Translations under genes and position numbers: made by a program
The notes under the pieces: model-generated
Told to the model about the DNA's origin: nothing
The model's database searches: none
Seen by the model: only the letters and a program-made list of their open reading frames with translations
Source: Perkinsus olseni
Lineage: Eukaryota
NCBI GenBank assembly: GCA_013115125.1
Contig: JABANN010000376.1
Location: forward strand, 1-34,335
Length of the DNA stretch: 34,335 nt
Direction: 5' to 3'
Shown here: one piece after another, positions 4,561 to 33,629 of the stretch
How the letters are laid out: every line of letters begins with the position of its first letter
How positions within the stretch are numbered: position 1 is the first letter of the stretch

Positions 4561-4642
4561 AGGAACATCAAACAGTCTACTTGAACACCGTGGACTGCAA
4601 CCGCACCAGCCTTGAATCATTGAGTCACGACGTCAATAGCCT

Positions 4643-7600
4643 TTAATACGCCTCAGTGGAGTATCTCTTCTTCGCCTTAATGTCATTCTCAAACCACAAC
4701 TCAACCTCATCCTCTGTCATCTTGCCAACTGTACGTACCGCATTTTTCATTGCTGCCTCCACATCGGGAACAGCTACAGACGGTCCACAGAAGTAGAAGT
4801 AGCCACCAAGTTGCTGGATATACTTGTACAATAGCTCAGGGTTCTCAGCCATCTTATGCTGCACGAATATCATATGGTCTTGGTCATGAGAGAAGGCGTT
4901 GATGACCTTGGTCAACACCCCAGCTTCCACGAAGGCCTTCCACTCATCTCTGTATAAGAACTCCTCCTTCTCATGACGACATCCATAGAAGACTATCATA
5001 GGACCAGTATCCATCCCGAGGACCTTCCGCTTGTACATACGATCCTGAACAAAGGCTCTTATGGGCGCTATACCAGTTCCCAAGCCAGCCATAACCATGG
5101 GTGTACGCTCATCCTCAGGGAAGACAAAGGTTCCACTCGCCACGGAGACGCACATCTTAGTGTCCTTACTGAAGCCCAAGTACTTAGTACTGGTACCAGT
5201 TAGAAGTCTACCATCAGAGTTGGTCCATCTGTTGATGACAACAGTGAGCTCGACGATGCCAGGCGAATAGAAGGAGCTGTTAGCGATCGAGTAGAGCCGA
5301 GGCTTCAACAGAGGCACCGTCTCGAGGAAGTTGACCAACGTCATGGACTTGGCAGATTTTGGGAACATCTTGAGAACCTCTGCATAAGAAACGCTCTTTC
5401 CCAACAACTTCTTGAACTTAACGTCATCATTAGCTATATCAGTGAGCTGCTTAGATTCTCCCTCATCACAGCTTATACGAGCAAGTTGCTTATAGAAGCT
5501 CCGACTGGGCTTACCAAAGATGTCGAGCAGCTCCGTGAAGATCTGCTTGGTAGGCATCCGGGCCGTGAAGGCAGAGCGCAGACGTGTTGGTACGTCCTCA
5601 GAGAGACACTTCACCGAGACGACATCGTTACGGTCTAGATGCATCAACACTTCGTCGAAGAGGTTGTCGACATCCTCCCTCAAGTTCTGTGGATAAAGCG
5701 TGATGGCATCACCAAGCCTGAAGGGTAGGTCCACAGCACTGATGTCCAGCACGATGTGACGAATATCACGCTCATACTCCATCGGCGTCATACGGCGGTT
5801 CTCACGCACAGGGACGGCATGAGACCCCGGAGGTACTATACGGTGATAAGGCAGCTGCTTCTCAGTAGCAGTAACAGGCAGACTAGTAACCTCAAACAAG
5901 GCCTCGTACTCTTCCTCTTCCTCTGGCTTAGCACCGACCTCTTCACAGAGCCCAGGCAACCACTGGTCGAAAGCAGTAGCCCAGCCATCCTCGTCCCGGT
6001 CATCTCCCTTGGCAATATCGAGGACTCGACTGACACCAAGTTCGGCCATGCGCTTGTCGATCTTCACAGCAGCTTCACAGAATTGTTCGTAAGAACTATC
6101 ACCCATGCCGAACATACAGAATCGACCACCGAGCTTCTTATTCTTCGGTAGAGCGGACATTTGCTCCCAAAGAGCCTGGGCTGCTGCTGGCATATCACCA
6201 TCACCACAAGTAGACGTCATGAGCACTAGTAGATCCTCAGCCTGGGTGGCTTCCTCAAGGACCAACTCGTCCATACCGGTGCAAACGTTAACACTGACAC
6301 CACGGCGCTTGAGTATGCCGGACAACCGCTTAGCGAGCTGTTCAGTAGTGCCAGTGTCCGAGCCGTAGTAGATCCTCACTCCAGCCGATAAACCCGAGGT
6401 AAGAACTTCAGCCGAGTGAGTCTTCTCCGCCGCGATGTCCTTCAACTTCTTATGGCGCTTCTCGATGTAGTCCTTGAGTTCAGTTTGCAGCTCCTCAGCG
6501 TGCTTTGGCATGCGCCTTACTAGCTGCTCAAAACGATTCTGGTTCTTCAAGAACTGGGCCAAAACCTCCGGCTTAATGTTCTTAGAGTCGAGCTGGAATG
6601 GATTCTTACGCTCCTCGGCGAGCTCGGGATCATAGCGGTAAAGAGGGTAGTAGCCTGACTCGACAGCTGCCTTCTGATCTTCGGGCATCCTAGTCAGACC
6701 CGTCTTAGTTCTATGTTCGATACAGGGGGCGTAGCAGAGTACAAGTGATGGGCCAGAATGCTTCTCGGCTTCATGGAAAGCCCGAACCGTCTGAGAGTAG
6801 TTGGCGCCCATGGAGCAGGAAGCTACATACACATTAGGGTATGCCATAGCCAGTTGACCCAAGTCCTTTTTCTGGAGGGCGCGACCATTCCGCATGAACT
6901 TGGCAACAGCTCCCATGGGAGTAGCCTTCGAGCCCTGGCCACCAGTGTTAGAGTAGACCTCAGTATCCAATACCACAATATTGACATTTTCGCCAAGTGC
7001 CAAGACATGATCTATGCCGCCGTAGCCGATATCATTGGCCCAACCATCACCACCGAGGATCCACATAGACGTCTTAACGAAGAGGTCAGAGAGCCTCTTG
7101 CACTCCTCGAGGCACCTCGGCAAGGGCGTCATGCCGTTCATGATTTCAACAGCTCGTTCACCGTACCTAGATGAGGCCTCGGGATGGTCAGCGTTATCAA
7201 GCCACTGCTGTAACACGAGCCTGATCTCGCCGGTAACCTCGGTATCATTCGCCAACGCCTCTTGTACACGAAGGCGTAGCTGCTGCCGCCTGTGGTGCAT
7301 AGTAACAGCCATGCCCATACCATACTCAGCATTATCTTCAAAAAGTGAGTTACCCCAGGCCGGGCCCTTGCCAGTCTTCTTGTCAACAGTATAAGGAATC
7401 CAACCAGCAGTAGCACCCCAGATAGAGCTGCACCCAGTAGCATTGGCAATGACCATGCGCTTACCGAACATCTGAGTCAGGAGCTTCGCGTAAGGCGTCT
7501 CGCCACAACCCTCACACGCGCCCGAGAACTCTAGTAAAGGCTGTTGGAACTGGGATCCCTTCAAGGTGTGAGCGTCAAAGCGGTCTCCACGAGACTCTAG

Positions 7601-10266
7601 AGTCATAGCATAGTCCCAGTTGTTCTTGTGACCTTCGGCCAGTGCATCAGGCAAAGGCTTCATCGCCAAGGCATTGTCGGGGCAAGCGTTCACGCAGACC
7701 TCACAGCCGGTGCAGTCCAGAGGAGAGGCTTGGATACGGAAAGCTAGGCCGGATACTTGATTACCACCGGTAGCTGGCTTAGTCAGGAAAGTCTCAGGAG
7801 TAGCATCACTGGCAAGCTCTTGAGGAGAAGCGAGGAATGGTCTGATAACACCGTGAGGGCAGATGGCTGAGCACTTGTTGCACTGAGTACATTTGTCCAT
7901 GTCAACGACAGGGATTGCCTGAGCCACACCACGCTTACCCCACTGCGTCATGCCCAATGGGACAGTGCCACCAGGCTGGAAGGCAGATACGGCTAGAGAG
8001 TCGCCTAGACGTGTTTGGATCTTATCCAACACATCTCGAACGAATGCCGGCTCCTCACCGCTGCGGGACTTGACCTGATCCAAGCGCTCACACTTCATCC
8101 ATCTGCTGAAGGGGACGTCGATCTTGTGGAGGTTGTCAATGGCATACCCCACAGCCAGGATGTTCTTGCGGACAACATCAGCACCCTTGTTCTTGTAAGT
8201 CTTCTCAATCGCAGCCTCGAAAAGTGGTAGTGCTTGCTCGTAAGGGAGGACACCAGAGAGACGGAAGAACACAGCTTGCATGATGTTGTTGATAAGTCTA
8301 CCCATACCCGACTCCTTAGCTACCAAGGAGGCGTTGATGACGAAAAGTTTGAGACGCTTCTCGGCCACCATCAGCTTGAACTTCGATGGGAGTTCTTCAT
8401 CAAGCTCTTCCACGGTCAGCCAAGGGGCGTTCAACACGAGGATGCTCTCCGGTTTGCTGGCACCGAGGATCAGAGAAGCGTCGAACGCCTTGACGTACTC
8501 CTTCTTGTGCACGGCGACGTATTCACATCCGCTAGTGATCTCGTAGGGCGAATTTATAGGCCTGGGACCAAAGCGAAGATGCGACACTGTGACCCCACCA
8601 GACTTGAGGGCATCGTAGGCGAAATATCCCTGAGCATAGAGATCGGTGTTGTCCGCTATGATCTTGATGGCGTTCTTATTGGCGCCCACCGTGCCATCCG
8701 AGCCGAAGCCCCAGAACATGCACTGAGTAGTAGAGGGATCAGACACGTCAATCTCATCCGAGACGGCCAGGGAAATGTTGTTCACGTCGTCATCAATTCC
8801 AACCGTGAACGGCGACTTGGGCACCCGGGCGTCGACAAGATTTCTCACAGCTGCATAGACTTGGCCCGGGGTGAAGTTCTTGGAAGCCAATCCAAAACGT
8901 CCACCGATCACCTGAGCAAGAAAGGTTAATGAGACCCAACTCCCGGGGTAACAAACGCCGAAGAACTGCCCCTTACCAGGATATCGGGCCTCTTTGACTT
9001 CTGGATACTAGCGCATACATCAACATAGAGGGGCTCTCCAATAGCACCTGCTTCCTTGCAGTGGTCCAGTACGCAAATGCGCTGCACCGTCGCTGGAAGA
9101 GCATTCAAAAAGTGTGGAACCGACCATGGCCTCAGGAGTCTCACTCGGACCAGCCCGAGCTTGTAACGAGGCTGTCGCTTCGCCAAATAAGCGATGGTCT
9201 CGGCAACCGTAGAGGAACCGGCCCCCATAACGACGAATACATGAGTAGCATTCGGGTCACCCTCATAGTCGAAAATGTTATATTCCCTACCAGTCAAGGC
9301 CTTGATCATATCAAAGGCCCCCAAGAGATGCTCGGGCACGGCGTCATAGTAGGGATTAGCGGCCTCAACATTCTGGAAGTAGATGTCGGGCGACTGGGCT
9401 GTGCCACGAACGGTCGGGTGGTTTGGGTTGAGGGCACGAGAGCGATGCTTGTCGATCTCCTTGGACATGATCTGGGCCACCAACTTCATCTGGTCAGCAG
9501 TGAGATCGTTAATCTTCTGTATCTCATGGGAAGTCCTGAACCCATCGAAGAAGTGGATGAATGGCACCGAGGACTTCAACGTGGCTATGTGAGCAGCCAA
9601 AGCCATATCCATACACTCTTGGACGGAGCTGGCACAGAGAAGAGCCCAACCAGTTTGACGCACAGCCATGATGTCAGAGTGGTCACCGAAAATTGACAAA
9701 GCTTGACCAGCGATGGCTCTTGCCGGTACATGAAAAACGCACGGAATGAGCTCACCAGCGATCTTGTAGAGGTTAGGGATCATTAACAAAAGCCCTTGAG
9801 ATGCAGTGAAGGTAGACGCCATACCACCGACTGCGAGGGAACCATGGACTGCACCGGCTACACCTCCCTCACTCTGCATCTGCCTAATCACAGTGCACTG
9901 ACCGAAGGCATTCTTGACACCAGCAGCAGACCATTGGTCACAATTCTCGCCAAGAGGAGTGGAAGGTGTAATGGGATAGATGAAAACGGAATCGGATAGA
10001 TTATAGGCCACGAAGGAGGCCGCACCGGCGCCATCATAAGGCTTCATGCCTGTATTCCGAGATGCTTCCAATTTGGCCAACATCTTCGGATCTTCTTGCG
10101 AGGCCCGAGGGACCGGAGGGCCCAGCTTCTCATCAGACGACTTGGCCCTCCTGCTGGTCAGGGCATAGGTGAAGACGCCAGCCGCTGCCAACGCAGCAGC
10201 CCCACCAGCAAGGGTCAAAGGGGTGAGCTTAACAACTCCAGGCTCCTCGGAGTCTTTCTGAGGCAT
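4643..10266 (-). CDS. PNO: Pyruvate:NAD(P)+ oxidoreductase (PFOR fused to a CPR-like FMN/FAD/NAD(P)H module), 1852 aa. Exons 10266-8977 and 8911-4643; 65-nt GT-AG intron at 8912-8976.
   Basis: PFOR motifs YPITPS, QMQSEGG, TASQGLLLM, FDGFRTSHE, GxDGTVGANK. Two ferredoxin motifs (CTQCNKCSAICP, CTGCEVCVNACP), plus GACEGCGE, ATGCSSIWG and the TPP motif GGDGW...NTGGQ. Flavodoxin motifs YGSDTGTTE and STCGDGD; FAD motif PRLYSIA; NAD(P) motifs GLGTGIAP, YGCR and YFCG. The splice ctg|gtaagg...ctcag|gtg joins PDIL to VIGGRFG in frame. Confidence 0.97.
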
Positions 10267-10525
10267 TGGTAAATGACAGAACACTGACAACGGAAGGAGT
10301 GCGGCTGTGAAACGACAGTGATTTAATGGGCATTGCCCACCCGATGTGATGAACGTCACCAAAACGCGGAGCGATACACGACCAAGATGTACACAACGTG
10401 CTGTATATACACCTGACGAGAAGGCTTGATGAGAGGCATATTCCTTGGCGAAAGAGAGAAACGGCGATTTATTGTTAGTGATTGAGTGCCGATTGAGTTA
10501 ACACTATACTAGATAACAACTTATG

Positions 10526-10639: not shown

Positions 10640-11293
10640 TTCTGTCCTCACAGACTGCAATTAAAAGAAAACGTCTTGAAAGTCCTCATTGAACTCACTA
10701 CAAGTATATTTTCTTCACAGCTTAAGCTTAGCATTGGGTTTCATCCTTCACCCGCTGGAGACACAAATCGTGCTACGACAGATCTGGACAACGACAACGA
10801 TGCACCACCGTCTTTCTGCCCGCTTCCTCTGGCGGCCGTAACTAACTCACCTTAAATAAGAAAAGAAAGGCGTAGAGAAGCTTGTGACCGTTGGAAAAAT
10901 CAGTGCCTACGCGAGGTCAAATGCGGTGGCGTGAGATAAATATATGCGGCCCTAGCAGAGATCAAGGATTTTTGGGCTAGCGCGAAATTGACTAGCCCAA
11001 CATTTTTCGCGCGCGCCCGAAAAAGAGCACTTGATCTTTTGTATTGTCTACACCAGTCAGTGCTGCATGTAACACTGATCATAGCCGATGAGCGAGTGTG
11101 CAATTGTACGACGAATGCCGGGCGGACTGGCCCGTCTACATAGACCTGCACTCGTCACTGTGGCTTTTACAGTGGGCTCAGTGCCAATTTGAGCCACTCT
11201 GCGCTCAGACCTCGCTAGTAGTTGCTACGCTGAAATAAGCTCAATCTGCCCAGCCTGGGAGAATACGGTTGCAAAGGTTTGTTTCAAATAATA

Positions 11294-13327
11294 ATGTGCA
11301 GCTTCTTGGTGAGTACGTGGCTGGCCCTGAACACCTCCATGGTCAACAAGTATATGCATCGTAGAGGTCCGGACAGCAGCCTTGTGACAATATGGCAAGA
11401 CCAACTTCTTTTCCTTCACAACCTACTGTCTCTCACCGGAGCTTATATGGAGCAGCCAGTGACTTCCGGATCGGTTGCCGCCGTTTTCAATGGTGAGATC
11501 TACAACTACCCCGAACTACATGGAGGAGCTACGACTGATACTGAGAGCCTCATTCCAGCTTATCAGCATGTTGGTGAGCATTTTCCGAGACTTCTGGACG
11601 GAGAGTTCGCCTTGGCTCTGGCCGACTTGGACCGGGCCCGTCTGATCCTTAGCTCTGATGTCTTCGGAACCAAGCCATTGTATTATTCCGCAACACCCGA
11701 AGATGGCGTACATGCCGCCACATACTCGAGCGCACTGAAGTTGATGGGGTTGCCGGAGCGTAGCATTCGAAGAGTACCTCCGAACACCTACCTGGTTATA
11801 TCTCTAGAAACCTACCAAGTCGTCGGCACTCATCAGATCTATGAGTTTGATCTGAGACAGCATAAACGAAACTGCGATGATTGGCTGGCAGCTTTCACGC
11901 GGGCAGTTGCGGTGCGCGTTGGGCATTCAGCAGATCACAGACCCTTCATAGGTCTCTCTTCGGGAGTTGATTCAGGTGCCATATACCTGGCGATGGCTGT
12001 CAGTGGTCTGCCTATACGCGCATACACCATTGCGGGAGAAGAGGATATGGACGTCTTACTTGGACGGTTATCCCATCCTTTCAACAACTCGCTCGAGCGA
12101 GCAGTTGCCATCGAGTTGTCAGTAGACGACTTCGAGAAGGAACGAAAGTTCCTCACTTTGGAAGCCGAGCCGGTTGCATACGAGGGCACCAACAACTGGG
12201 CTGGCGGGAGTATCGCAGAAGACCCTGCAGCGAGCGGCTTCTCCTTCATAGGGCGTCTTGCTAGACAAAACGGCGAGCTCATTTATCTCTCCGGCACAGG
12301 CTCCGACGAGATCATCTCAGATTACGGCTTTAACGGCACCAAGTTCTTCCCTCATAGTACGTTCGGTGGCTTATTTCCCGAAGACTTGCATGATATGTTC
12401 CCTTGGGAATCTGTGTTCCTCGGCACCCAGCGCGACTACCTTATGAAGGAGGAGATTGTCGCTGGTGCTCATGGCATCGAGAGCCGCTACCCATTCCTCG
12501 ATCGCCGAGTGGTGCAAGAGTTTCTGTGGTTGGATGCATCAGCCAAAAATGCAGCATACAAGTCCTGCGTATCAGCCTTCCTCGACCATCACGCCTTTCC
12601 AAAGGAGCATGCTGGGAAACGAGGATTCGCAGCCAGCAAGCACCTACGGATACTCGGTCTGTCTAAAGTGGACCACCCAGCAAACTTGTGCTTGCAACCG
12701 CCAGGCTGCCTGCAGAGCATCGCATGGATGTCTCTGTTAAGCTCAATCACAGTGTATGCACTCAGACCTGAGGTGGGCCGCCATAAAGTTCTTAGCGTCA
12801 TTCAAGATTCCCCTGAACTTCTTCACGACAATATACCCTCTTGTCTCGTTGGCCAACTAGCTCTGTACTACTACTTGCATCAAGAAGGCTCTCTACGCAT
12901 CGATATTACACAGATCGAGCATGCAGTGGTTCAGGATATTAGCTGGGCCAGGGCAGTCAACTGTGGATGGCCAATTTTTCAGCTACTATCGTCTGGCGGG
13001 TCTAATGTTACCTACGAGGAACACGATCTGATAGACTCATTGCTGACCCTAAAGAACTCCCGCTCGAAGGCGCAGACGGTTGTGTCAATGTTGCAAGTCG
13101 CGTCCAAGGTTCGGTTTGGCGGAATCGAAGATCTGCTGCGCTGGGCACAGAAACACCATTCCGCCGTAGGAGAGCGAGCCGACAACGAGGTTGTCTTTCG
13201 CGAGTTAGCGCTGTTGAGTCGTGACAATATGCGTGCTAACTATGGTGACATATTTCTTCTCCGATCTCTTTGCATCGACGTGTGTCGTGTTAAGTCTAAG
13301 AATTACTTTCACGCAATCAGCTCGTAG
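11294..13327 (+). CDS. Asparagine synthetase B-like glutamine amidotransferase (Ntn-GATase plus ATP-pyrophosphatase synthetase domain) with a ~220-aa unassigned C-terminal extension; intronless, 677 aa
   Basis: The ATG at 11294 gives Met-Cys (Ntn nucleophile). Motifs RRGPD, FNGEIYN, TDTE, LDGEFA, DVFGTKPLYY, PP-loop LSSGVDS, LSGTGSDEI and ESRYPFLD. Confidence 0.88.
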   Translation: MCSFLVSTWLALNTSMVNKYMHRRGPDSSLVTIWQDQLLFLHNLLSLTGAYMEQPVTSGSVAAVFNGEIYNYPELHGGATTDTESLIPAYQHVGEHFPRLLDGEFALALADLDRARLILSSDVFGTKPLYYSATPEDGVHAATYSSALKLMGLPERSIRRVPPNTYLVISLETYQVVGTHQIYEFDLRQHKRNCDDWLAAFTRAVAVRVGHSADHRPFIGLSSGVDSGAIYLAMAVSGLPIRAYTIAGEEDMDVLLGRLSHPFNNSLERAVAIELSVDDFEKERKFLTLEAEPVAYEGTNNWAGGSIAEDPAASGFSFIGRLARQNGELIYLSGTGSDEIISDYGFNGTKFFPHSTFGGLFPEDLHDMFPWESVFLGTQRDYLMKEEIVAGAHGIESRYPFLDRRVVQEFLWLDASAKNAAYKSCVSAFLDHHAFPKEHAGKRGFAASKHLRILGLSKVDHPANLCLQPPGCLQSIAWMSLLSSITVYALRPEVGRHKVLSVIQDSPELLHDNIPSCLVGQLALYYYLHQEGSLRIDITQIEHAVVQDISWARAVNCGWPIFQLLSSGGSNVTYEEHDLIDSLLTLKNSRSKAQTVVSMLQVASKVRFGGIEDLLRWAQKHHSAVGERADNEVVFRELALLSRDNMRANYGDIFLLRSLCIDVCRVKSKNYFHAISS

Positions 13328-13350
13328 GTTAGTGGAAACATATCGATAAG

Positions 13351-15251
13351 TCATACTACGCCAGTGACACGCAGTTTATACACACCAACAACAGGAGAAT
13401 GATCGCTCGTGTCCACTTCGGGAACTGATCGATACTCCTCTGGTATCAGGGCTTGAGGGAACGACGCTGAAACACGAAGAATGTGGATGCGACAAGTGAA
13501 GAGGAAAAGCAGCAAACTGATCGAAATCACTTTTTCGGAAGCTCGGGCCTTAGCGCGGATGGCCTACCTCGGCATAGAATACGGTCACACCAACTGGGTA
13601 CACGCTTAGCTGAATATTGCTGACCTTCTGTGCCGGAAATCGTCTTGTAGGTTGGCTTAAAGCTAAGCGGCGGCTCCCAAAGGGTGCAGCACTGCGGCAC
13701 CTGACTCGAGGCGGAGAAGCGATCGAGATACACGCGAGCAATATTCTCCCCGCAGTGAGGCTCCAAGTTACGAAAGACCCATGTTGACGCGAGGCTATAC
13801 GCTCCCCAAAAACGAGGATCCCTGGTCACACCGCATGCCGGCTCACTCGTGATCCGCATACGAGCTCGTCAGTGGTCTCGTCGAAGGCGACCTCCGAACG
13901 GGCGTTCCAGTCGCCGAAAGCAAACATCACAGTCGATTCGAAACAGTGCATTGAATTCAGTCTGATGTTATCGAGGATTCTGTAGTATCTGAAAGTCATC
14001 AGAGGGTACAGCACGAGGCCGCCGCCCCGCCTCGAACGCTGCCGCCAGGCTGATGGACGAAGACGTACTGTCGGCGCCGCATTTCAGCTCCTCCTTCACC
14101 AGCGGACAGATGTACCGCAATCGCAACCAAAGAGGTGTCTCCCACATCGACACGCATCCCAGCGGCTCCTTTGTTTCCAGTGTAACCAAAGGTACCAGTT
14201 TTGCAAATAGCCTTGTCAACATATTCGATGTACCGGTGAACGTCCTTGCTAACGAAGCAAGCCAGCAAGATTCCAACAAGCTCAACGTAACCGACCAGAG
14301 TGTAGTTCAGTAGAGCACTGTCCCAAATACTAAGCCATCTGTATGTGTTATGGTTGTCCTTCCACAACACGTTCACAGGCTTCAACTCTATTGTCTCCTG
14401 GAGACTGATAAAAACTATGTCCGTGCCATCGGGTGGGTTCAGCGCCGCCGGAATCTTCTTGGGAACTTTTTGAGCGGCAACGTTCCACGTGAGCACCCAA
14501 ACTTTAAGTTCTCTCCCAGGCTTCCTGCTCGTGGCCGTTCTTGCCAGCATCTCCTCCGAAGCACGAGTGGTAATACCACCGAGCTCATTGAAGTCTATAC
14601 GAACGTCGCCATCGTTCAGCATATCTCCTCCACTAGACAAACATACCGGCTCACCGTACCTCCAAAGCCAATCAAATCGGAAGCTGTAGCGAGGCCCTGT
14701 ATACGATACACGTGCGCTGTCTGCTATGCTCTGAGCACGAAGTAACGCATTCTTGAATGGACTGGCATCGACAGATGATGCATAGAGATAGATCTCGAGC
14801 CACTCTTTCTCAGGTTCTCGGGAAGTTCTGGTAGACCAGTAAATATACAGGCCCGCCGCGTCGTAAGTGACCGAAACATTATGAGCCAGGGGGATGCATT
14901 TTGATGCTGTAGGGCCACCTACGACGGATGCCTCCTCGAAATTGTAGACTAGTAGCGCAGCTTCCTCTGGGCGCGCTCGGGAACAAATCAACAGCAACCC
15001 TGATCTTGAGTACGCGTTGGTATCTGAGCTTTTCACTTCAGCGATAGTTGCACTGAGTAAGCGTTCATTTTTTTGCACCTGGAAGTAAGATGACCAAAAG
15101 GGCTTGAACCGCCGAGCGTCACCTCTGACTCAGCCAGGGGCATCAAATACACTTCACGCCCCTCTGGCGACGTCGTCGAAAACGAAGACATGCGGGTGTC
15201 AGTTGGCGTTGGAGATGAGGTAGCGGGTGAGGTTGGGGGAAGTGGCTCCAT
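13351..15251 (-). CDS. Inositol polyphosphate 5-phosphatase (OCRL/INPP5B-like, possible N-terminal PH-like region), multi-exon
   Basis: Motifs TWNV, DIVFISLQE, KTG...GNKGA, HLSAG, FAFGDWNAR, FKPTYK and RVPSWCDRIL; the last exon carries SDHSPV with a stop at 13351. The first intron at 15079-15122 (gtgacg...ttccag) keeps frame. The start at 15251 is the most plausible ATG but is not certain. Confidence 0.9.
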
Positions 15252-16488
15252 TGATAAGCCATCGACATAGTCAGGGCATGGGTGCATCTGCTGAGAACAT
15301 CCACCCTCCGATTGTACCCAACACGAGCTCACGGGAAAGTTGAAACAAATGACATGTCTATTTCGGCTCTCGAGCCTCCGGCACACTACAAGCCTTGGAA
15401 AGCATGCGCGGCACGGAGCACCTCTGCGGAGGTTCGGAGGAGGACTTAGTCTTCAGGACTCGTGTTAACGGTCGAGGTGCCGTCGCTCCCCTCCATCCTA
15501 TCCACTGTGGACTCAATAAATCTCTTCAACTCCTCAACATCCGACTGCGCGCAAACTTTCATGCGTGTGGAAGAGAGTCGCCATAGCGCTGATGATTAGC
15601 TCATCTAAGAGAACTTAATGTGAGTTGGATGACAATTCGCAACTCTGCGGAAGGTAATTGACCAAGTTCAAGGACATTATCAGATTCCCTTTTTCGCACG
15701 AGTAATGCCCACTTCGCGTAAGCCCAGTAGGATGGGCATGGATCTTGGCATTCTCAAAACGCGGGTCGTTCAGGGCTCATCTCACTTGATGAGCGAATAA
15801 CCCGATAACAACAACTTCCAATTCAAACTTCTCTAAAACCTCACGATTCACGAACCCTCGACTAAACCTAGAGGCCTTCGAGGTTCACTAGGAGCAGGAA
15901 AGGCCTGGGCGAAAATGCCTTGGCAAGCCCTCATGGTAGAAGGGCCGGCCCCGTGTCAGTGGCGCCAGTCGCGTCAGCAGCGCCGAATGAATTGTTACAA
16001 GCCTTAGCAACACAATGAGCAACTCACGATCATAATTGTTCGAACCTTCTAAAGTGGTTTTTCAAGGACTTCGCCGAAGTCACTTCGGTCATATCAAGAG
16101 TTTCAAGTCCAGACGCGTGTGGCTAGAATCTCCAGTACCATGCGTTCGATATGGGTGGAACTTCCACCGTGGAAGTTGCAGACTGCAACGAAGTCAGTTT
16201 CTGACTTGTAGTTCAACCGCAGCAGTTCTAGAAACTAGCCTCGCTTCGACTGCATTCCGCCTGTGCGGCGCTCCATTGAATGGGGGTGAATGGAGTCCTT
16301 TCTGTCTACTTTTTTGTGCGAATATTGCACTATGTGCAAGCGTGCAGCCCGAGGTACTGGCCCTTTGCCGCTGTAGTCAGAACTGGACTTAAAGGTCCAT
16401 CTCACGCGTAGTTTGACCGCCTGGAAGATCGCGTGATATTGTTACCTCCGCTATTGGTACTCAGTTCGGGTCATTCTAGCGATTTTGC

Positions 16489-18477
16489 ATGAGAGTCACT
16501 CGACCCCCTCTCCCCCTTTTGTTGTCTCTTGCCGTCGCTTTCCAGCCGGTACAGATCGCCAACGGTCCTATTTCAGGGGTGGTGGTAAAGAAGGATACCA
16601 CATTACAGCAGCCTATCATGCAGGATGTGGAGATCTTCTTTGGAATCCGATATGCCGAACCTCCCGTCGAAGGATTGCGATTTCGGCCTCCACAGACATA
16701 CACCTCCGGTGACTGGAATTCTACCCGGCCTATGGTTACACCTGGGAGTGCCTGCTTTCATGTTAACTCAGGCGTTGAAGGTGGTACTGGTCCTACAAGT
16801 GGTGAAGAGGATTGCCTCTTCCTCAACGTTTACCGGCCATCTACTGTAGAGAATAGCACGTCGAAACTCCCAGTCATGTTCTGGATCTATGGCGGTGGCT
16901 ACGTTAATGGCGACGCATCGTCAGTCAGTGGTACAGCATTGGCGGCAACGCATGATGTTATTGTTGTCACGGTGAACTACAGGCTGGGCCACTTGGGGTT
17001 CTTCGGTTCCCAGAGCTCTCTTTCACAAGAAGGCACAACTGGCAATTGGGGGACCTTGGATACTCAGCTAGGTCTGAAGTGGGTCCAACAGAACATCGAG
17101 GCCTTTGGTGGGGATAAGAACAGAGTCATGTTGTTCGGAGAGTCTGCCGGGGCGTTTACTGTTATGTGGCACATCGCAGCCCCGGGAAGTAAAGGCCTCT
17201 TCCACTCGGCCATTATGCAGTCTGGAACGACTTCGACTCCGTTGTTCTTCCAAAATCAGGCAGATGCTTTCAGATATTACGACTGGGTAGCGACCGAACT
17301 TGCAGGCTGTAGGGATGCCGATGATCTCGACTGCCTACGACGAGTTAATCCACAGAAGTTGTCCTTACCGGACGGCATTCGTGTGGATGCAGCCCGTGCG
17401 CCAACTTGGGGATCGCCATTATTTCCCAATATGCCTGTAGGCCCTATTGTAGACGGCACGGCCCTCCCCGATATCCCGCTCCGGGTGGTTGAGAATGGTA
17501 ACCATAATGATGTACCACTTATCATAGGCCTAAACAAGAACGAAGGGTCGTTGTTCGCCTTCATAATACCGGATATGATTCCGGATCTCGAAGTGCCACT
17601 GACAGAGCAGGACGTTCGCAAAGCCGTCAACTACTTCTTGCAGAACGAGACTGCTTCGCAGGGGTTGGAGAAGCTCTATTCTTTTGGGAGATACTCTTCT
17701 GTCTACGGCCCCGACAACGGTCCATTCGAGCAAGTCGCTTATCAAATAAGGGACGCTTTCTTCCACTGCTCCGGCCGACGCCTCGCCGATGCACTCAGGA
17801 GTAAGGCGAGGTCCCCCTCCTGGATGTACTCCTTTGACAAGTCAGACCTCTTCGGGGCTTTGAGTGAGCTCAAGCTCGGAGCATTCGTTGCGGCCTACGG
17901 GAATGTGACTCTGGATGAGCTGGGCACTTTCCACTCCGCAGAACTTCCCTTTGTATTCAAGAAGTTCGGTGAAGGTCCAGCCAACTTGTCACCCTCGGTC
18001 TCGTCAATAGTCTCGCTGTATATGGCGCATCCTCCTCGCCAGCCTGGTGACGCCTTCCATCGCATTAGCGATGCCTTCTCCTGCATGTGGTCTCATATGG
18101 CCTCCCACGGAAGTCCGACGAGTCCACAGCAACACTGCCCGGGGTTACCTGATGGAGGTATCCCTCCGTGGTTGCCTTACAACTCGAGCCTCGATGGCTC
18201 CCAGGCTCAGGGTGTCTACATGCACATCGGCGATAAGTTGAGCATGCGGCCTTGGAGATCCAACAACGTCTACCCCGATAATGAGATGCCGTCTATTGAA
18301 CAATGTCAGTGGTGGGATGAGCACCCCGTGGGGTTCCATGACCTTCGGGCTGATATTCCAATAACAACGACACCTCCCCCAACTCCCACCAGACCCGTAT
18401 CGTCAGCTCGTTGCTGGGCTGCAGGGAACGTCATTTTGATCTTGATATCGTTTGTTGTCTTGTCGCTGCTGGCATAA
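16489..18477 (+). CDS. Type-B carboxylesterase/cholinesterase-family hydrolase, secreted and probably GPI-anchored; intronless, 662 aa
   Basis: N-terminal signal peptide; motifs FFGIRYAEPP, EDCLFLNVY, oxyanion GGG, NYRLG, nucleophile GESAG, acid NKNEG and His FHSAELPFVF; T/P-rich stalk and hydrophobic C-terminal tail. Confidence 0.93.
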   Translation: MRVTRPPLPLLLSLAVAFQPVQIANGPISGVVVKKDTTLQQPIMQDVEIFFGIRYAEPPVEGLRFRPPQTYTSGDWNSTRPMVTPGSACFHVNSGVEGGTGPTSGEEDCLFLNVYRPSTVENSTSKLPVMFWIYGGGYVNGDASSVSGTALAATHDVIVVTVNYRLGHLGFFGSQSSLSQEGTTGNWGTLDTQLGLKWVQQNIEAFGGDKNRVMLFGESAGAFTVMWHIAAPGSKGLFHSAIMQSGTTSTPLFFQNQADAFRYYDWVATELAGCRDADDLDCLRRVNPQKLSLPDGIRVDAARAPTWGSPLFPNMPVGPIVDGTALPDIPLRVVENGNHNDVPLIIGLNKNEGSLFAFIIPDMIPDLEVPLTEQDVRKAVNYFLQNETASQGLEKLYSFGRYSSVYGPDNGPFEQVAYQIRDAFFHCSGRRLADALRSKARSPSWMYSFDKSDLFGALSELKLGAFVAAYGNVTLDELGTFHSAELPFVFKKFGEGPANLSPSVSSIVSLYMAHPPRQPGDAFHRISDAFSCMWSHMASHGSPTSPQQHCPGLPDGGIPPWLPYNSSLDGSQAQGVYMHIGDKLSMRPWRSNNVYPDNEMPSIEQCQWWDEHPVGFHDLRADIPITTTPPPTPTRPVSSARCWAAGNVILILISFVVLSLLA

Positions 18478-18504
18478 GATGAGTATATAATTGCTCAGAT
18501 TCAT

Positions 18505-18562
18505 TGTCTTTTGAAAAGACATGTTCAGTCGAGAAAAGACTCTTTTCTCGACTGAACATGTC
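18505..18562. repeat. Perfect 45-bp palindrome (22-bp arms) overlapping a smaller 17-bp palindrome
   Basis: gacatgttcagtcgagaaaaga-c-tcttttctcgactgaacatgtc (18518-18562) and tgtctttt-g-aaaagaca (18505-18521). Confidence 0.95.
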
Positions 18563-19823
18563 GGGATCCACTCATTCTTTTAGTGAGCTCAGCTTCTAGG
18601 AGAGTGCTGTTCTAGTTCTGCAAGTGCATACTACTGCTGCGCCACACTACAAACCCTGTATACAGCCATATAAACCCTATACGTATGTAGCTAGCTTACA
18701 GCTGGGGTCACGGATATTTTCACACGGTGTCAGGGGCCTCAAGGATAGGGGCTCAAACTTTCTCTCGCCTCCCAGAGCTGGTTTCGTTTTGTTGGTGATT
18801 CCCGCGGCGCACAGATCACGGAGAAAGTTACCTAGTGAATACGCTGGGGCAGGCAATGTGCACTGCACAATGGTATCTTCTCCGAGAACGCTCCTCGCTG
18901 CTGATTGATGTCAACGGCGCCCGACGCGGATTCCACCGAGACAATGGCTTGTGTCATTACAATTACGCTAATGATCTGATGCAAGCCACCTTCCGCGGAT
19001 CACCCCTTGGTGAGATTCCTTCTTGTCTGGCGGTCCGCCCGTGGCGAGTGTGTCTGTACATGCATGTGTCTCAGTCGTTGCCAGAGCGGAGCTGCCTCGA
19101 TTGCAGCTCCCTGCCTAGCTACACCAGGCCGACTCGACCTGGCCGAATCTTGGTTATCAATCCTCACTGTATTGCGTCACGAGGCGCAAGAAGTTCCCTA
19201 CTGGACGATAAGGACAAGAGCGAGCTCAAAAACAACCTGGTTCCATCTCTGAGTGATCTGGTCGATGCAACTCCTTATAAGGTGAGCCTAGCTGCTCCCC
19301 TGACAACTTATTACCTGCCCCATATCAATCTGAGAGCCCAAGCGTCTCATCCAAGAGACGAAGCTTGGTAGGATCCCAACCTGAAAAAAAAGCTACGTCA
19401 TTCTGAGCTCCAAGGTCGAGCTATGCTGGCTCACCTCCCCTCCAAGAAGGGCTCCTCGAGTCGAGGACCTCGACACAGCAACAACCGCTTCAGTTGTAGG
19501 AGCTCCGCGAGGACCCGTTCAAAGCCAACGTTCAGTATGGCATACTAATCGCAACAACCAAACGTCGCAGCACATTGGGAAGCAATTCACTGAGTTCTAC
19601 CTGATATTAGCGAGGCTTCTGTAGCACCTGGCCCGGGTTGGCCGGACACGCGGCACTTCGCCGCGGACTCGGACGGAATGCGTCGTCGGCATAGTAGGAT
19701 AACGGTCGCATAAGATTCACCTTATACCGGCTGAATGCATCGAACTCGGTATCACAGAAGAAGGTGGAAACACAACGTATTATACAACAACTATCATCGG
19801 GAACCAATAATACGATATAGTGG

Positions 19824-31983: not shown

Positions 31984-32456
31984 GGTCACAACAGAAGAAA
32001 CAGGGCACTGCCTAGCACAGACAATCTTGGACATCTACGACCAGCATGCTAGCTCACGACGCTCCGGAGACGCGCAATTTGACAGTATCTTGTGATTTCT
32101 CCAGCATCACTCCGTGAATGGTTCACATAGTGCACGGTCTTCTATGGGCCGGATAGGATGCCGATATCTCATTTGCAACTGCCTAGCTTACTGCTTTCAA
32201 GACACTTGAACTACCCTCGCCATAAGCTCATTCCTCCGTGCACTATGCACAGTAGCCGCCCAACACTACGGTATGATGGAAAGGGCATAGAGATCCGAAA
32301 TTCACTCCCATTCACACATAATGAGGATTATACTGGTAGACTGTCTGCAAAACCGATAACAGGCCTCGTCAAGCGGCACGACGTCATCAAAGGTTTCCCC
32401 TCCGTCCCACATAAATGAACTCAAGTCATTAACTCCAAAATAAATGATACAACTCT

Positions 32457-33629
32457 TCAGTCTTCGGGGCTACCCAGATGGAGAGGCCTTCGTCGTAACG
32501 TCTCAAAGCCTGGCCTATCTGAGCTGCCACTTCGAACACTCGACGTACTAGCGGCACCAGACTCGCTCGATGCAGCACGACTGCTCTCGGTATTCCTTTG
32601 ACGAGGCCGACGACGACTACGTCTATGCCGCTTCCTCCTAGAAGGCCGACTGAACAGTGCTCGCCATACCATTGAGAATCCAGCGAAGACTAGGAATACG
32701 ATGAGAACGAGTAACACAAAGACAACACACATGATGATCGGATGGGACGACAGGAGGTAGCGGATACCCGAGAGCTGGGAGTGGAATCTCAAGTCAGCTC
32801 GGTAAACCTGCAGTGGAGGGCTCATGCAGACCGTGGCCGACAACAGCGGGAAGTTTGAACTCTCGTAGACCTCCACGTTGAGCTCTTCGAATAAAGGCAT
32901 CGTTACAGTGAACTCATCGACGGTCCATCCGAGAAGGGCTGGTACAATCATCAGCCACTCTCTCATCGTGCCGAGCAATGAAGAACGATACGGTAAGAGG
33001 AGAGGCCGACGTGAGCGTGCCGTGGGCTCATCTCGGCCCTTCATACCATACAAGGTGATGTCCACCATGACAGGTCCCTTGTCGACGTTGTAGTGATTGG
33101 AAGGTAGATCCAAGGCCAGTGTAACGTCATAATCGACCGAGGGAGCTGGGAGATCCAGAACCGGTGCAGCGAGGGCCGGTCGACTAGCTGCCGTGTCAAA
33201 CCATTGGCGGTTAGAGAAGGACACCGCCGCGCACGCAGGTGTGGTGCTGTAGTCAAAGTAAACAGGGAAAGAGTGCAATTGCTTTGGTATGACCAGCCAG
33301 TGCACCACCCAGTAGAGGATCAAGGCGGACACCGTCACTGAGACCACGCTCAGTCCGACCAGAATCAATTTGGCCCATAGGAGTACTAGTCGCCACGCGA
33401 AAGGCGATATGTGGCGGGATACGAAAACCAGCCCGGGTTGAATGGCATGCCAAGTTCCGTAGGAAGCTCTGGCCAATGCCGAACCCTGAGCCTCGCTATC
33501 GAGACTGGAGTTCGACGAGTTAGTTGGCGACGACGCATTGGAAGCCAGATCTCCGCTGCCTGATGAGGGGTCAGTGTGGCCCTCGATGGGCAATTGAGGG
33601 ACTCCAGAGGATCGAGTCCGCTCGGACAT
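32457..33629 (-). CDS. Seipin (BSCL2/Fld1 family), intronless, 390 aa
   Basis: Two TM segments flank a lumenal domain with IP...FPVYFDY, YDVTLALDLPSNHYN..KGPVMV, SRRPLLLPYRS and LQVYRADLRF..QLSGIRYLL..HP; basic C-terminal tail. Confidence 0.9.
   Translation of the reverse strand: MSERTRSSGVPQLPIEGHTDPSSGSGDLASNASSPTNSSNSSLDSEAQGSALARASYGTWHAIQPGLVFVSRHISPFAWRLVLLWAKLILVGLSVVSVTVSALILYWVVHWLVIPKQLHSFPVYFDYSTTPACAAVSFSNRQWFDTAASRPALAAPVLDLPAPSVDYDVTLALDLPSNHYNVDKGPVMVDITLYGMKGRDEPTARSRRPLLLPYRSSLLGTMREWLMIVPALLGWTVDEFTVTMPLFEELNVEVYESSNFPLLSATVCMSPPLQVYRADLRFHSQLSGIRYLLSSHPIIMCVVFVLLVLIVFLVFAGFSMVWRALFSRPSRRKRHRRSRRRPRQRNTESSRAASSESGAASTSSVRSGSSDRPGFETLRRRPLHLGSPED

Follow-up and report, generated by a model that had tools for sequence, protein, structure and literature searches.

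Which acceptor takes the electrons of pyruvate when a pyruvate:NADP+ oxidoreductase (PNO) has replaced the residues around the 2'-phosphate of NADP+? The question is raised by a gene in a stretch of Perkinsus olseni DNA of 34,335 nucleotides (assembly GCA_013115125.1, contig JABANN010000376.1, positions 1 to 34,335 of the forward strand), referred to here as the window. The gene contains an uninterrupted minus-strand open reading frame (ORF) of 1422 amino acids, P0001 (4643..8911), that ends in a diflavin reductase module. An earlier note on this DNA had read the module as one that has lost the residues binding the 2'-phosphate, and had proposed an NAD+-linked or relaxed pyruvate oxidoreductase. 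The gene is a functional, transcribed PNO paralogue encoding a single chain of 1852 amino acids, and its altered site marks a PNO subfamily of Perkinsus and dinoflagellates. The pattern of substitutions gives somewhat better than even chances that the last step of this subfamily no longer selects its acceptor by the 2'-phosphate, and that NAD+ would be accepted, preferentially or alongside NADP+.

Canonical PNO has been described in Euglena gracilis, Cryptosporidium and Blastocystis. Perkinsus and dinoflagellates have lost mitochondrial pyruvate dehydrogenase (PDH) and complex I. For the conversion of pyruvate to acetyl-CoA after the loss of PDH, PNO is one published candidate, reported as a possible replacement in P. 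marinus and in dinoflagellates (PMC3879968; PMC4779609).

The altered site and the clade that carries it

Among PDB chains, the best match of the reductase module is rat NADPH-cytochrome P450 reductase (CPR; phmmer, E 7e-63). The translation of P0001 around the altered segment reads TKVINAFSHDQDHMIFVQHKMAEN, and in the HMMER alignment AFSHDQDHMIFVQH pairs without a gap with AFSREQAHKVYVQH of rat CPR. Relative to the rat enzyme, Arg is changed to His, Lys to Met, Tyr to Phe and Ala to Asp, and the Ser is unchanged. Translation and phmmer thus bear out what the earlier note had read here: the segment, its gapless alignment, the changes R597H, K602M and Y604F, and an 'extra Asp'. The positions concerned are the following.

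4856..4903, minus strand: segment INAFSHDQDHMIFVQH, P0001 residues 1337-1352 (16 residues), within the earlier-noted 4852..4905
4889-4891, minus strand: S1341, the retained Ser
4886-4888, minus strand: H1342, at the position of rat R597
4871-4873, minus strand: M1347, at the position of rat K602
4865-4867, minus strand: F1349, at the position of rat Y604
4775..4777, minus strand: V1379, a fourth clade-specific pocket position, Gly in 96% of canonical PNO rows and aligned with rat R634 in the Asp632 loop

Following the earlier note, rat S596 and Y604 are presumably residues of the 2'-phosphate and adenine site. A published account of rat CPR confirms the role given to R597 and K602, on which NADPH binding starts at the 2'-AMP-PPi part; it further assigns the pyrophosphate to R567 and R298 and the gate of the pocket to R597 and N635, and describes an Asp632 loop (PMC12472590). 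In sorghum CPR, S626, R627, Y634 and Q636 are listed as binding the 2'-AMP-PPi part, and the equivalent of the GCR Arg is in contact with the 2'-phosphate (PMC8942828). The corresponding loop of the window protein, SHDQDHM, holds no basic residue and two Asp (net charge -2); the same loop in 81 canonical rows holds two to four basic residues.

The distribution of the change was read from a set of the best 120 homologues, using 115 rows that cover at least 90% of the module. Seventy-seven read SR at the site, 23 QF and 13 SH, with the query and one hydrogenase fusion among the last; two are without the region. In the tier that follows Perkinsus, at 42-48% identity over the module, stand named proteins of Symbiodinium, Effrenium and Polarella, none of which has S-R...K.Y; their site reads AFSHDKPHYPPKMIFV or AFQFDKPHYPPKQIFV. 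When the motif columns are left out, a FastTree phylogeny of 113 rows groups the query with 11 SH and 23 QF rows in a single clade (35 rows, support 100); its sister group is formed by 15 canonical rows, P. marinus P0046 among them. The same clade appears with support 100 in a 90-row IQ-TREE analysis for which outgroups were added (LG+C20, PMSF, short search), where the sister group comprises 17 canonical rows including both canonical Perkinsus paralogues (support 99). Clade membership is thereby observed directly, as is the pattern of substitution and conservation described below.

In the canonical PNO rows examined the tetrad does not vary. Ser, Arg, Lys and Tyr are 100% conserved in 77/77 canonical rows and are kept in 77/77 further canonical rows found with a Diplonema query, among them a named Blastocystis protein and P. 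chesapeaki P0346, and in 24/24 more that include Amoebophrya, Chromera, a gregarine, Mesostigma, P. marinus P0356 and P. chesapeaki P0374. Diflavin reductases in general read SRKY in 126 of 144 filled rows (nearest 150 cluster representatives). In the 34 clade rows other than the query, the four columns read Gln (68%) or Ser (32%), Phe (68%) or His (32%), Met (50%) or Gln (38%), and Phe (94%). Between the Ser and Lys columns each of the 34 loops retains one or two Lys, and 97% of these rows have Lys at column 1346, which immediately precedes the K602 position. The loop of the window protein is the extreme case within the clade. The change is thus no peculiarity of one enzyme: the pattern defines the whole Perkinsus and dinoflagellate clade. 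The comparison with other PNOs that the earlier note had called for was answered in part. The change marks the clade, and the named Blastocystis protein, Amoebophrya, Chromera and the gregarine keep S-R...K.Y; the rows included no named Euglena or Cryptosporidium protein.

Few positions separate the clade from canonical PNOs. The 578 module positions were scanned for residues that are conserved to 95% or more among the 77 canonical rows but retained by no more than 10% of the 34 clade rows. Apart from two gap columns, the scan returned only L1070 (changed to Val or Ile), R1342, K1347, Y1349 and G1379. Three of these five are the equivalents of rat R597, K602 and Y604. For three of five to coincide with the four named residues, the hypergeometric probability is 1.2e-6 when all 578 positions are counted and 9e-4 when only the 64 with at least 95% conservation are; given this and the invariance of the positions in canonical rows, the change at the site exceeds chance. 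Fifty-four positions are conserved to at least 95% in both groups, among them RxYS, GTGxAP, R1285, R1312 (the GCR Arg), C1375-G1376, R1048, R1416 and E1420. The residues for pyrophosphate, nicotinamide and flavin reach this level as well, including the terminal aromatic and R1048 and R1312, the equivalents of rat R298 and R567 (R1048 by eye from the phmmer alignment). Mean pairwise identity within the clade is higher in the NAD(P) domain (0.65) than in the FMN (0.56) and FAD (0.54) domains, and canonical PNOs likewise conserve their NAD(P) domain best.

The other motifs that the earlier note had called intact (RLYS, GxGTGIAP, GCR, YFCG and EAY) were all located in P0001, as RLYS 1205-1208, GLGTGIAP 1276-1283, YGCR 1309-1312, YFCG 1373-1376 and a terminal STEAY. 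Its view of the change as targeted, and not as decay, agrees with the conservation of the flavin, pyrophosphate and nicotinamide residues and of the NAD(P) domain. By this pattern the domain is under constraint, with only its 2'-phosphate/adenine corner rebuilt.

The nearest proteins are two from P. chesapeaki (85% and 75% identity) and one from P. marinus (73%); identity to the canonical Perkinsus paralogue P0046 is 37% over the module. These nearest matches and the spliced leader described below mark the gene as that of a Perkinsus-like organism. P0003 (P. chesapeaki) groups with the query and P0004 (P. chesapeaki) with P. marinus P0005, so Perkinsus has two paralogues of the altered type. 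The public models of these proteins are broken at the site. P0003 and P0004 go from ...PMVMA straight to the last ~37 residues, missing the equivalent of P0001 ~1278-1385, and P0005 ends after YGCRHEK. Because P0005 encodes GLGTGIAP...YGCRHEK and the frame in the window is continuous, the gaps are probably annotation errors, which hide the altered site from users of the databases.

Gene structure, transcript and N-terminus

The P0001 frame is preceded by another minus-strand ORF (8926..10362), which supplies exon 1; the two coding parts add up to 430 + 1422 = 1852 residues. The features of the gene are listed from its 5' end.

10284..10285, minus strand: AG acceptor of spliced-leader trans-splicing, from RNA contigs and genomic sequence; the mature mRNA body runs from 10283
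8977..10266, minus strand: coding exon 1, 430 codons from the first ATG (MPQKD...), with N-terminal extension, POR_N and PFOR_II, from ORF, translation and Pfam
10153..10227, minus strand: uncharged hydrophobic segment LTPLTLAGGAAALAAAGVFTYALTS, residues 14-38, a membrane anchor predicted from hydropathy
8912..8976, minus strand: intron of 65 nt, GT..AG, skipped in contigs of runs X1 and X3
4646..8911, minus strand: coding exon 2 (P0001), 1422 codons, with POR, EKR, two 4Fe-4S motifs, TPP_enzyme_C and the diflavin module, from translation and Pfam
5960..6373, minus strand: flavin mononucleotide (FMN; flavodoxin-like) domain, P0001 847-984, Pfam Flavodoxin_1 E 5.7e-28
5180..5818, minus strand: flavin adenine dinucleotide (FAD)-binding domain, P0001 1032-1244, including RLYS 1205-1208, Pfam FAD_binding_1 E 2.2e-40
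4778..5086, minus strand: core of the NAD(P)-binding domain, P0001 1276-1378 (GLGTGIAP, YGCR, YFCG), Pfam NAD_binding_1 E 8.3e-12
4643..4645, minus strand: stop codon, from translation

Expression was assessed from contigs of two public runs, X1 and X3, which come from two studies and were aligned to the locus. That both are RNA runs was initially a guess, and is now argued from the skipped intron, the spliced-leader tail and the depth pattern. The predicted intron is missing from contigs of both runs: 65 nt between 8909 and 8975 are omitted, with plus-strand borders CT..AC. Contigs of both also leave the genome at 10285; the reverse complement of their extra letters is TCTTGGCTCA, and with the genomic AG (10285-10284) added this is the published 3' end of PmaSL1, the spliced leader of P. 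marinus (PMC3101222). Beyond this site, the bin 10316-10500 has no depth in X1 or X3, and the depth of X1 declines from 3' to 5' along the gene. The first ATG lies 17 nt downstream of the spliced-leader site, a junction that defines where both the mRNA and the protein begin. Gene structure and expression are in this way direct observations. The P. chesapeaki models hint that the NAD(P) domain is spliced out. This was rejected, as X3 record 9 (4668..5576; one mismatch, no gap) spans the whole domain contiguously, in a continuous frame, and the domain is conserved.

Three departures of the contigs from the window were also seen. Between 6635 and 8731 the contigs of both runs diverge by ~2-3% (40/2097 and 55/1884) and adjoining contigs are near-identical to the window; the divergent stretch could come from another allele, another strain or a close paralogue. 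At 8799, within the coding region, one X1 contig of low depth (6.3 of 29.9) is one base short, owing either to an error of assembly or to a minor variant with a frameshift. One X3 contig departs from the window at 4572, within the 3' untranslated region, and continues with 255 unrelated letters; a chimeric contig, a second 3' end of the transcript or differing haplotypes may explain it.

The domain content is that of a PNO. An N-terminal part of the homodimeric pyruvate:ferredoxin oxidoreductase (PFOR) type, with thiamine pyrophosphate (TPP) and Fe-S domains, is recognized by Pfam as POR_N (E 8.6e-74) and PFOR_II (E 6e-7) in exon 1, followed by POR, EKR, Fer4 and TPP_enzyme_C. A diflavin reductase is fused to it in the same polypeptide, with Flavodoxin_1, FAD_binding_1 and NAD_binding_1 in the same exon as the C-terminal half of the PFOR, and the junction of exons 1 and 2 is present in the RNA contigs. 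The reductase module is placed phylogenetically among PNO sequences and carries the marks of the diflavin family (CPR, CysJ, NOS reductase), namely FMN and FAD motifs, RxYS, GxGxxP, the Cys-Gly of hydride transfer and a C-terminal aromatic residue. The protein departs from canonical PNO in the S-R...K.Y tetrad, where Ser alone is kept.

The N-terminus also sets the subfamily apart. The query begins with MPQKDSEEPGVVK, followed by the 25 uncharged residues LTPLTLAGGAAALAAAGVFTYALTS and RRAK. Scored as the maximum Kyte-Doolittle hydropathy over 19 residues ahead of the PFOR core, with a threshold of at least 1.5, such a segment is reached in 14/16 full-length clade members and in 0/104 full-length canonical rows (canonical median 0.57). 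The query itself is borderline (maximum 1.61, with a net charge of +2 in its C-terminal flank) and its relatives are clearer, with values of 1.5 to 2.35; P. marinus P0005 (1.74) and both P. chesapeaki models have the segment as well. In most clade members the uncharged stretch is 19-25 residues long, the C-terminal flank usually carries a net charge of +2 to +4, and the two exceptions have shorter N-terminal extensions. Judged from hydropathy and flanking charge, the segment probably anchors the protein in a membrane, and the enzyme would then lie on the side of the positive flank; a signal peptide is the alternative. In contrast, the canonical Perkinsus paralogues start with Arg/Ser/Ala-rich sequences that have no hydrophobic segment and, by eye, look like mitochondrial presequences. 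These paralogues look like the candidates for the matrix.

Elsewhere in the window, the neighbouring frames of 11279..33629, among them those listed below, resemble ordinary eukaryotic genes and show no evident connection with PNO. The region 24001..32000 has a G+C content of 0.56-0.58 and a strongly negative GC skew (to -0.19), against a G+C content of ~0.51-0.53 in the rest of the window.

11279..13327, plus strand: asparagine-synthase-like gene
13999..15078, minus strand: exo/endonuclease-phosphatase
16489..18477, plus strand: carboxylesterase
19824..21702, minus strand: CLC chloride channel, split over two frames
25767..27176, minus strand: Hsp70-like gene
32457..33629, minus strand: seipin

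Acceptor and location of the enzyme

From the conservation pattern and from hydropathy, we infer both a shift of cofactor and anchoring to a membrane. The subfamily arose through duplication of a canonical PNO, and its 2'-phosphate subsite was rebuilt, with Arg changed to His or Phe, Lys to Met or Gln, Tyr to Phe and Ser often to Gln, while the flavin, pyrophosphate and nicotinamide sites were all retained. Electrons would pass from pyruvate over TPP and three Fe-S clusters to FMN and FAD, as in PNO, and the final hydride acceptor would go unselected by a 2'-phosphate, such that NAD+ would be reduced, preferentially or together with NADP+. The N-terminal hydrophobic segment would probably tether the subfamily to a membrane.

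How strict such a preference might be is indicated by the Ser position. In NADH-specific members of the ferredoxin-reductase superfamily, such as cytochrome b5 reductase, an acidic residue typically replaces this Ser and binds the 2'/3'-OH of the ribose. No acid is found there in the window protein (Ser) or in the clade (Gln or Ser), and the Asp two positions on occurs in canonical PNOs too. Relaxed specificity is therefore favoured over strict NADH specificity.

This absence of an acid is one of several points that weigh against a shift of cofactor. Ser1341 and R1312 are retained, and the equivalent Arg of sorghum CPR touches the 2'-phosphate (PMC8942828); His1342 and His1346 could carry charge; the other 34 clade rows all keep their loop lysines; and SHDQDHM is seen in the window protein only, the other Perkinsus orthologue models being without the region. 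An enzyme that is still NADP+-linked would use these residues, holding the 2'-phosphate by Ser1341, a protonated His1342 or His1346 and Arg1312, with a shifted Lys added in dinoflagellates, and the subfamily would differ from canonical PNO in location or regulation and not in cofactor. The conservation of the His in 12/12 SH rows of the clade (query counted) fits such an arrangement, as does the near-constant Lys of column 1346. However, the window loop has neither Lys nor Arg and is negatively charged, 23/35 clade rows lose the Ser as well and have Phe at the Arg position, and Arg and Lys are invariant in 178/178 canonical PNO-type rows, which suggests that an NADP+ enzyme does not easily do without them. 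On balance, retained NADP+ linkage, the principal rival, is unlikely, if well short of negligible. Given their loop lysines, the dinoflagellate members may have rebuilt the 2'-phosphate site and not lost it, which would count against a cofactor shift in them; this is far harder to argue for the window protein.

The N-terminal segment suggests a different exit for the electrons. A membrane-tethered enzyme might give the electrons of FMN or FAD mainly to an acceptor associated with the membrane, for example a quinone, cytochrome b5 or P450-type proteins, or to oxygen, in which case the NAD(P) domain would serve a structural or regulatory role or act as an overflow. The anchor-like segment is co-inherited with the altered site, and similar SH variants without the Lys and Tyr occur in diflavin modules fused to [FeFe]-hydrogenase, to a flavodiiron-type domain and to a hybrid-cluster protein. 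Yet no part of the module is better conserved in the clade than the NAD(P) domain, the residues that a working hydride transfer needs (GTGxAP, R1285, R1312, C1375-G1376 and the terminal aromatic) are present in at least 95% of rows, and the anchor lies at the PFOR end, far in sequence from the FMN domain; a main exit other than nicotinamide is accordingly improbable. That the segment reflects decay, a pseudogene or an artefact of assembly or annotation is hardly credible: the public Perkinsus models do lack exactly this region, but their missing pieces are most likely annotation errors given what P0005 encodes, and the 1422 + 430 codons run without interruption, spliced and spliced-leader-capped contigs come from two studies with one of them spanning the NAD(P) domain, and the domain is strongly conserved across 35 clade rows.

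If the cofactor shift and the anchor are taken together, Perkinsus and dinoflagellates may possess a membrane-tethered pyruvate:NAD+ oxidoreductase of which the window protein would be the fully switched form, a combination that is tentative and less probable than relaxed selectivity by itself. Such an enzyme would be a natural diflavin module switched from NADP to NAD, yielding acetyl-CoA and NADH from one chain and feeding alternative NADH dehydrogenases. The suggestion of the earlier note that the protein is a single-chain substitute for PDH stands in part. PNO as a stand-in for PDH in these lineages is already in print (PMC3879968), and the idea is to that extent not new; a PDH-like role in the matrix is doubtful for this paralogue, since its N-terminus is anchor-like and not presequence-like.

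Comparison with known systems

A literature search that covered main texts, for the most part outside subscription journals, turned up no account of PNOs forming a subfamily whose nucleotide site is altered or whose N-terminus bears an anchor. Perkinsus and dinoflagellates have at least two kinds of PNO, one of them with a rebuilt cofactor pocket and a likely anchor, which splits the question of pyruvate oxidation into two enzymes with possibly different cofactors and locations.

The likeness at the site extends beyond PNOs. CysJ-type diflavin modules fused to [FeFe]-hydrogenase are known from the anaerobic protists Trichomonas, Pygsuia and Stygiella (PMC4989108). The [FeFe]-hydrogenase fusions P0145, P0250, P0242, P0224 and P0120, the flavodiiron-type (ODP) fusion P0185 and the hybrid-cluster-protein fusion P0219 all read S-H and are without the Lys and Tyr, as in the window protein. 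A further fusion, P0147, reads S-H by the HMMER alignment and L-R by regular expression. These fusions have other catalytic partners and fall outside the PNO subfamily in the IQ-TREE tree, and their resemblance to the clade is thus convergent or ancient and not a matter of shared descent. The idea that the module was taken over from a diflavin reductase of the hydrogenase SH type was rejected, since the clade nests within PNOs and the fusions lie elsewhere in the tree. Cofactor use in the SH-reading fusions may merit the same question.

Rat CPR (PDB 1amo, 3wkt and others) aligns with the window protein over the whole module, including the FMN, FAD and NADP motifs. The two differ in direction, as CPR receives electrons from NADPH and PNO delivers them to the nucleotide, and in the site, where R597, K602 and Y604 are not kept and the Asp632 loop of the window protein is one residue shorter, with GPSV for GDAR. 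A natural diflavin reductase that accepts NAD+, if confirmed as such, would be of interest to enzymologists who have attempted to engineer the switch from NADP to NAD in P450 reductase.

Closer relatives are the dinoflagellate members of the clade, Symbiodinium pilosum P0022, Effrenium voratum P0018 and Polarella glacialis P0037. Like the window protein, to which they are 42-48% identical, they have Arg, Lys and Tyr replaced and carry the N-terminal segment; unlike it, they have a four-residue insertion of the YPPK type and their one or two loop Lys. With canonical PNO the window protein shares the single chain of PFOR, flavodoxin, FAD and NAD(P) domains, and its module nests inside PNOs in both trees. 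It differs in having three of the four S-R...K.Y residues replaced, in the change of G1379 to Val in the Asp-loop region, and in a hydrophobic, anchor-like N-terminus in place of one that resembles a presequence.

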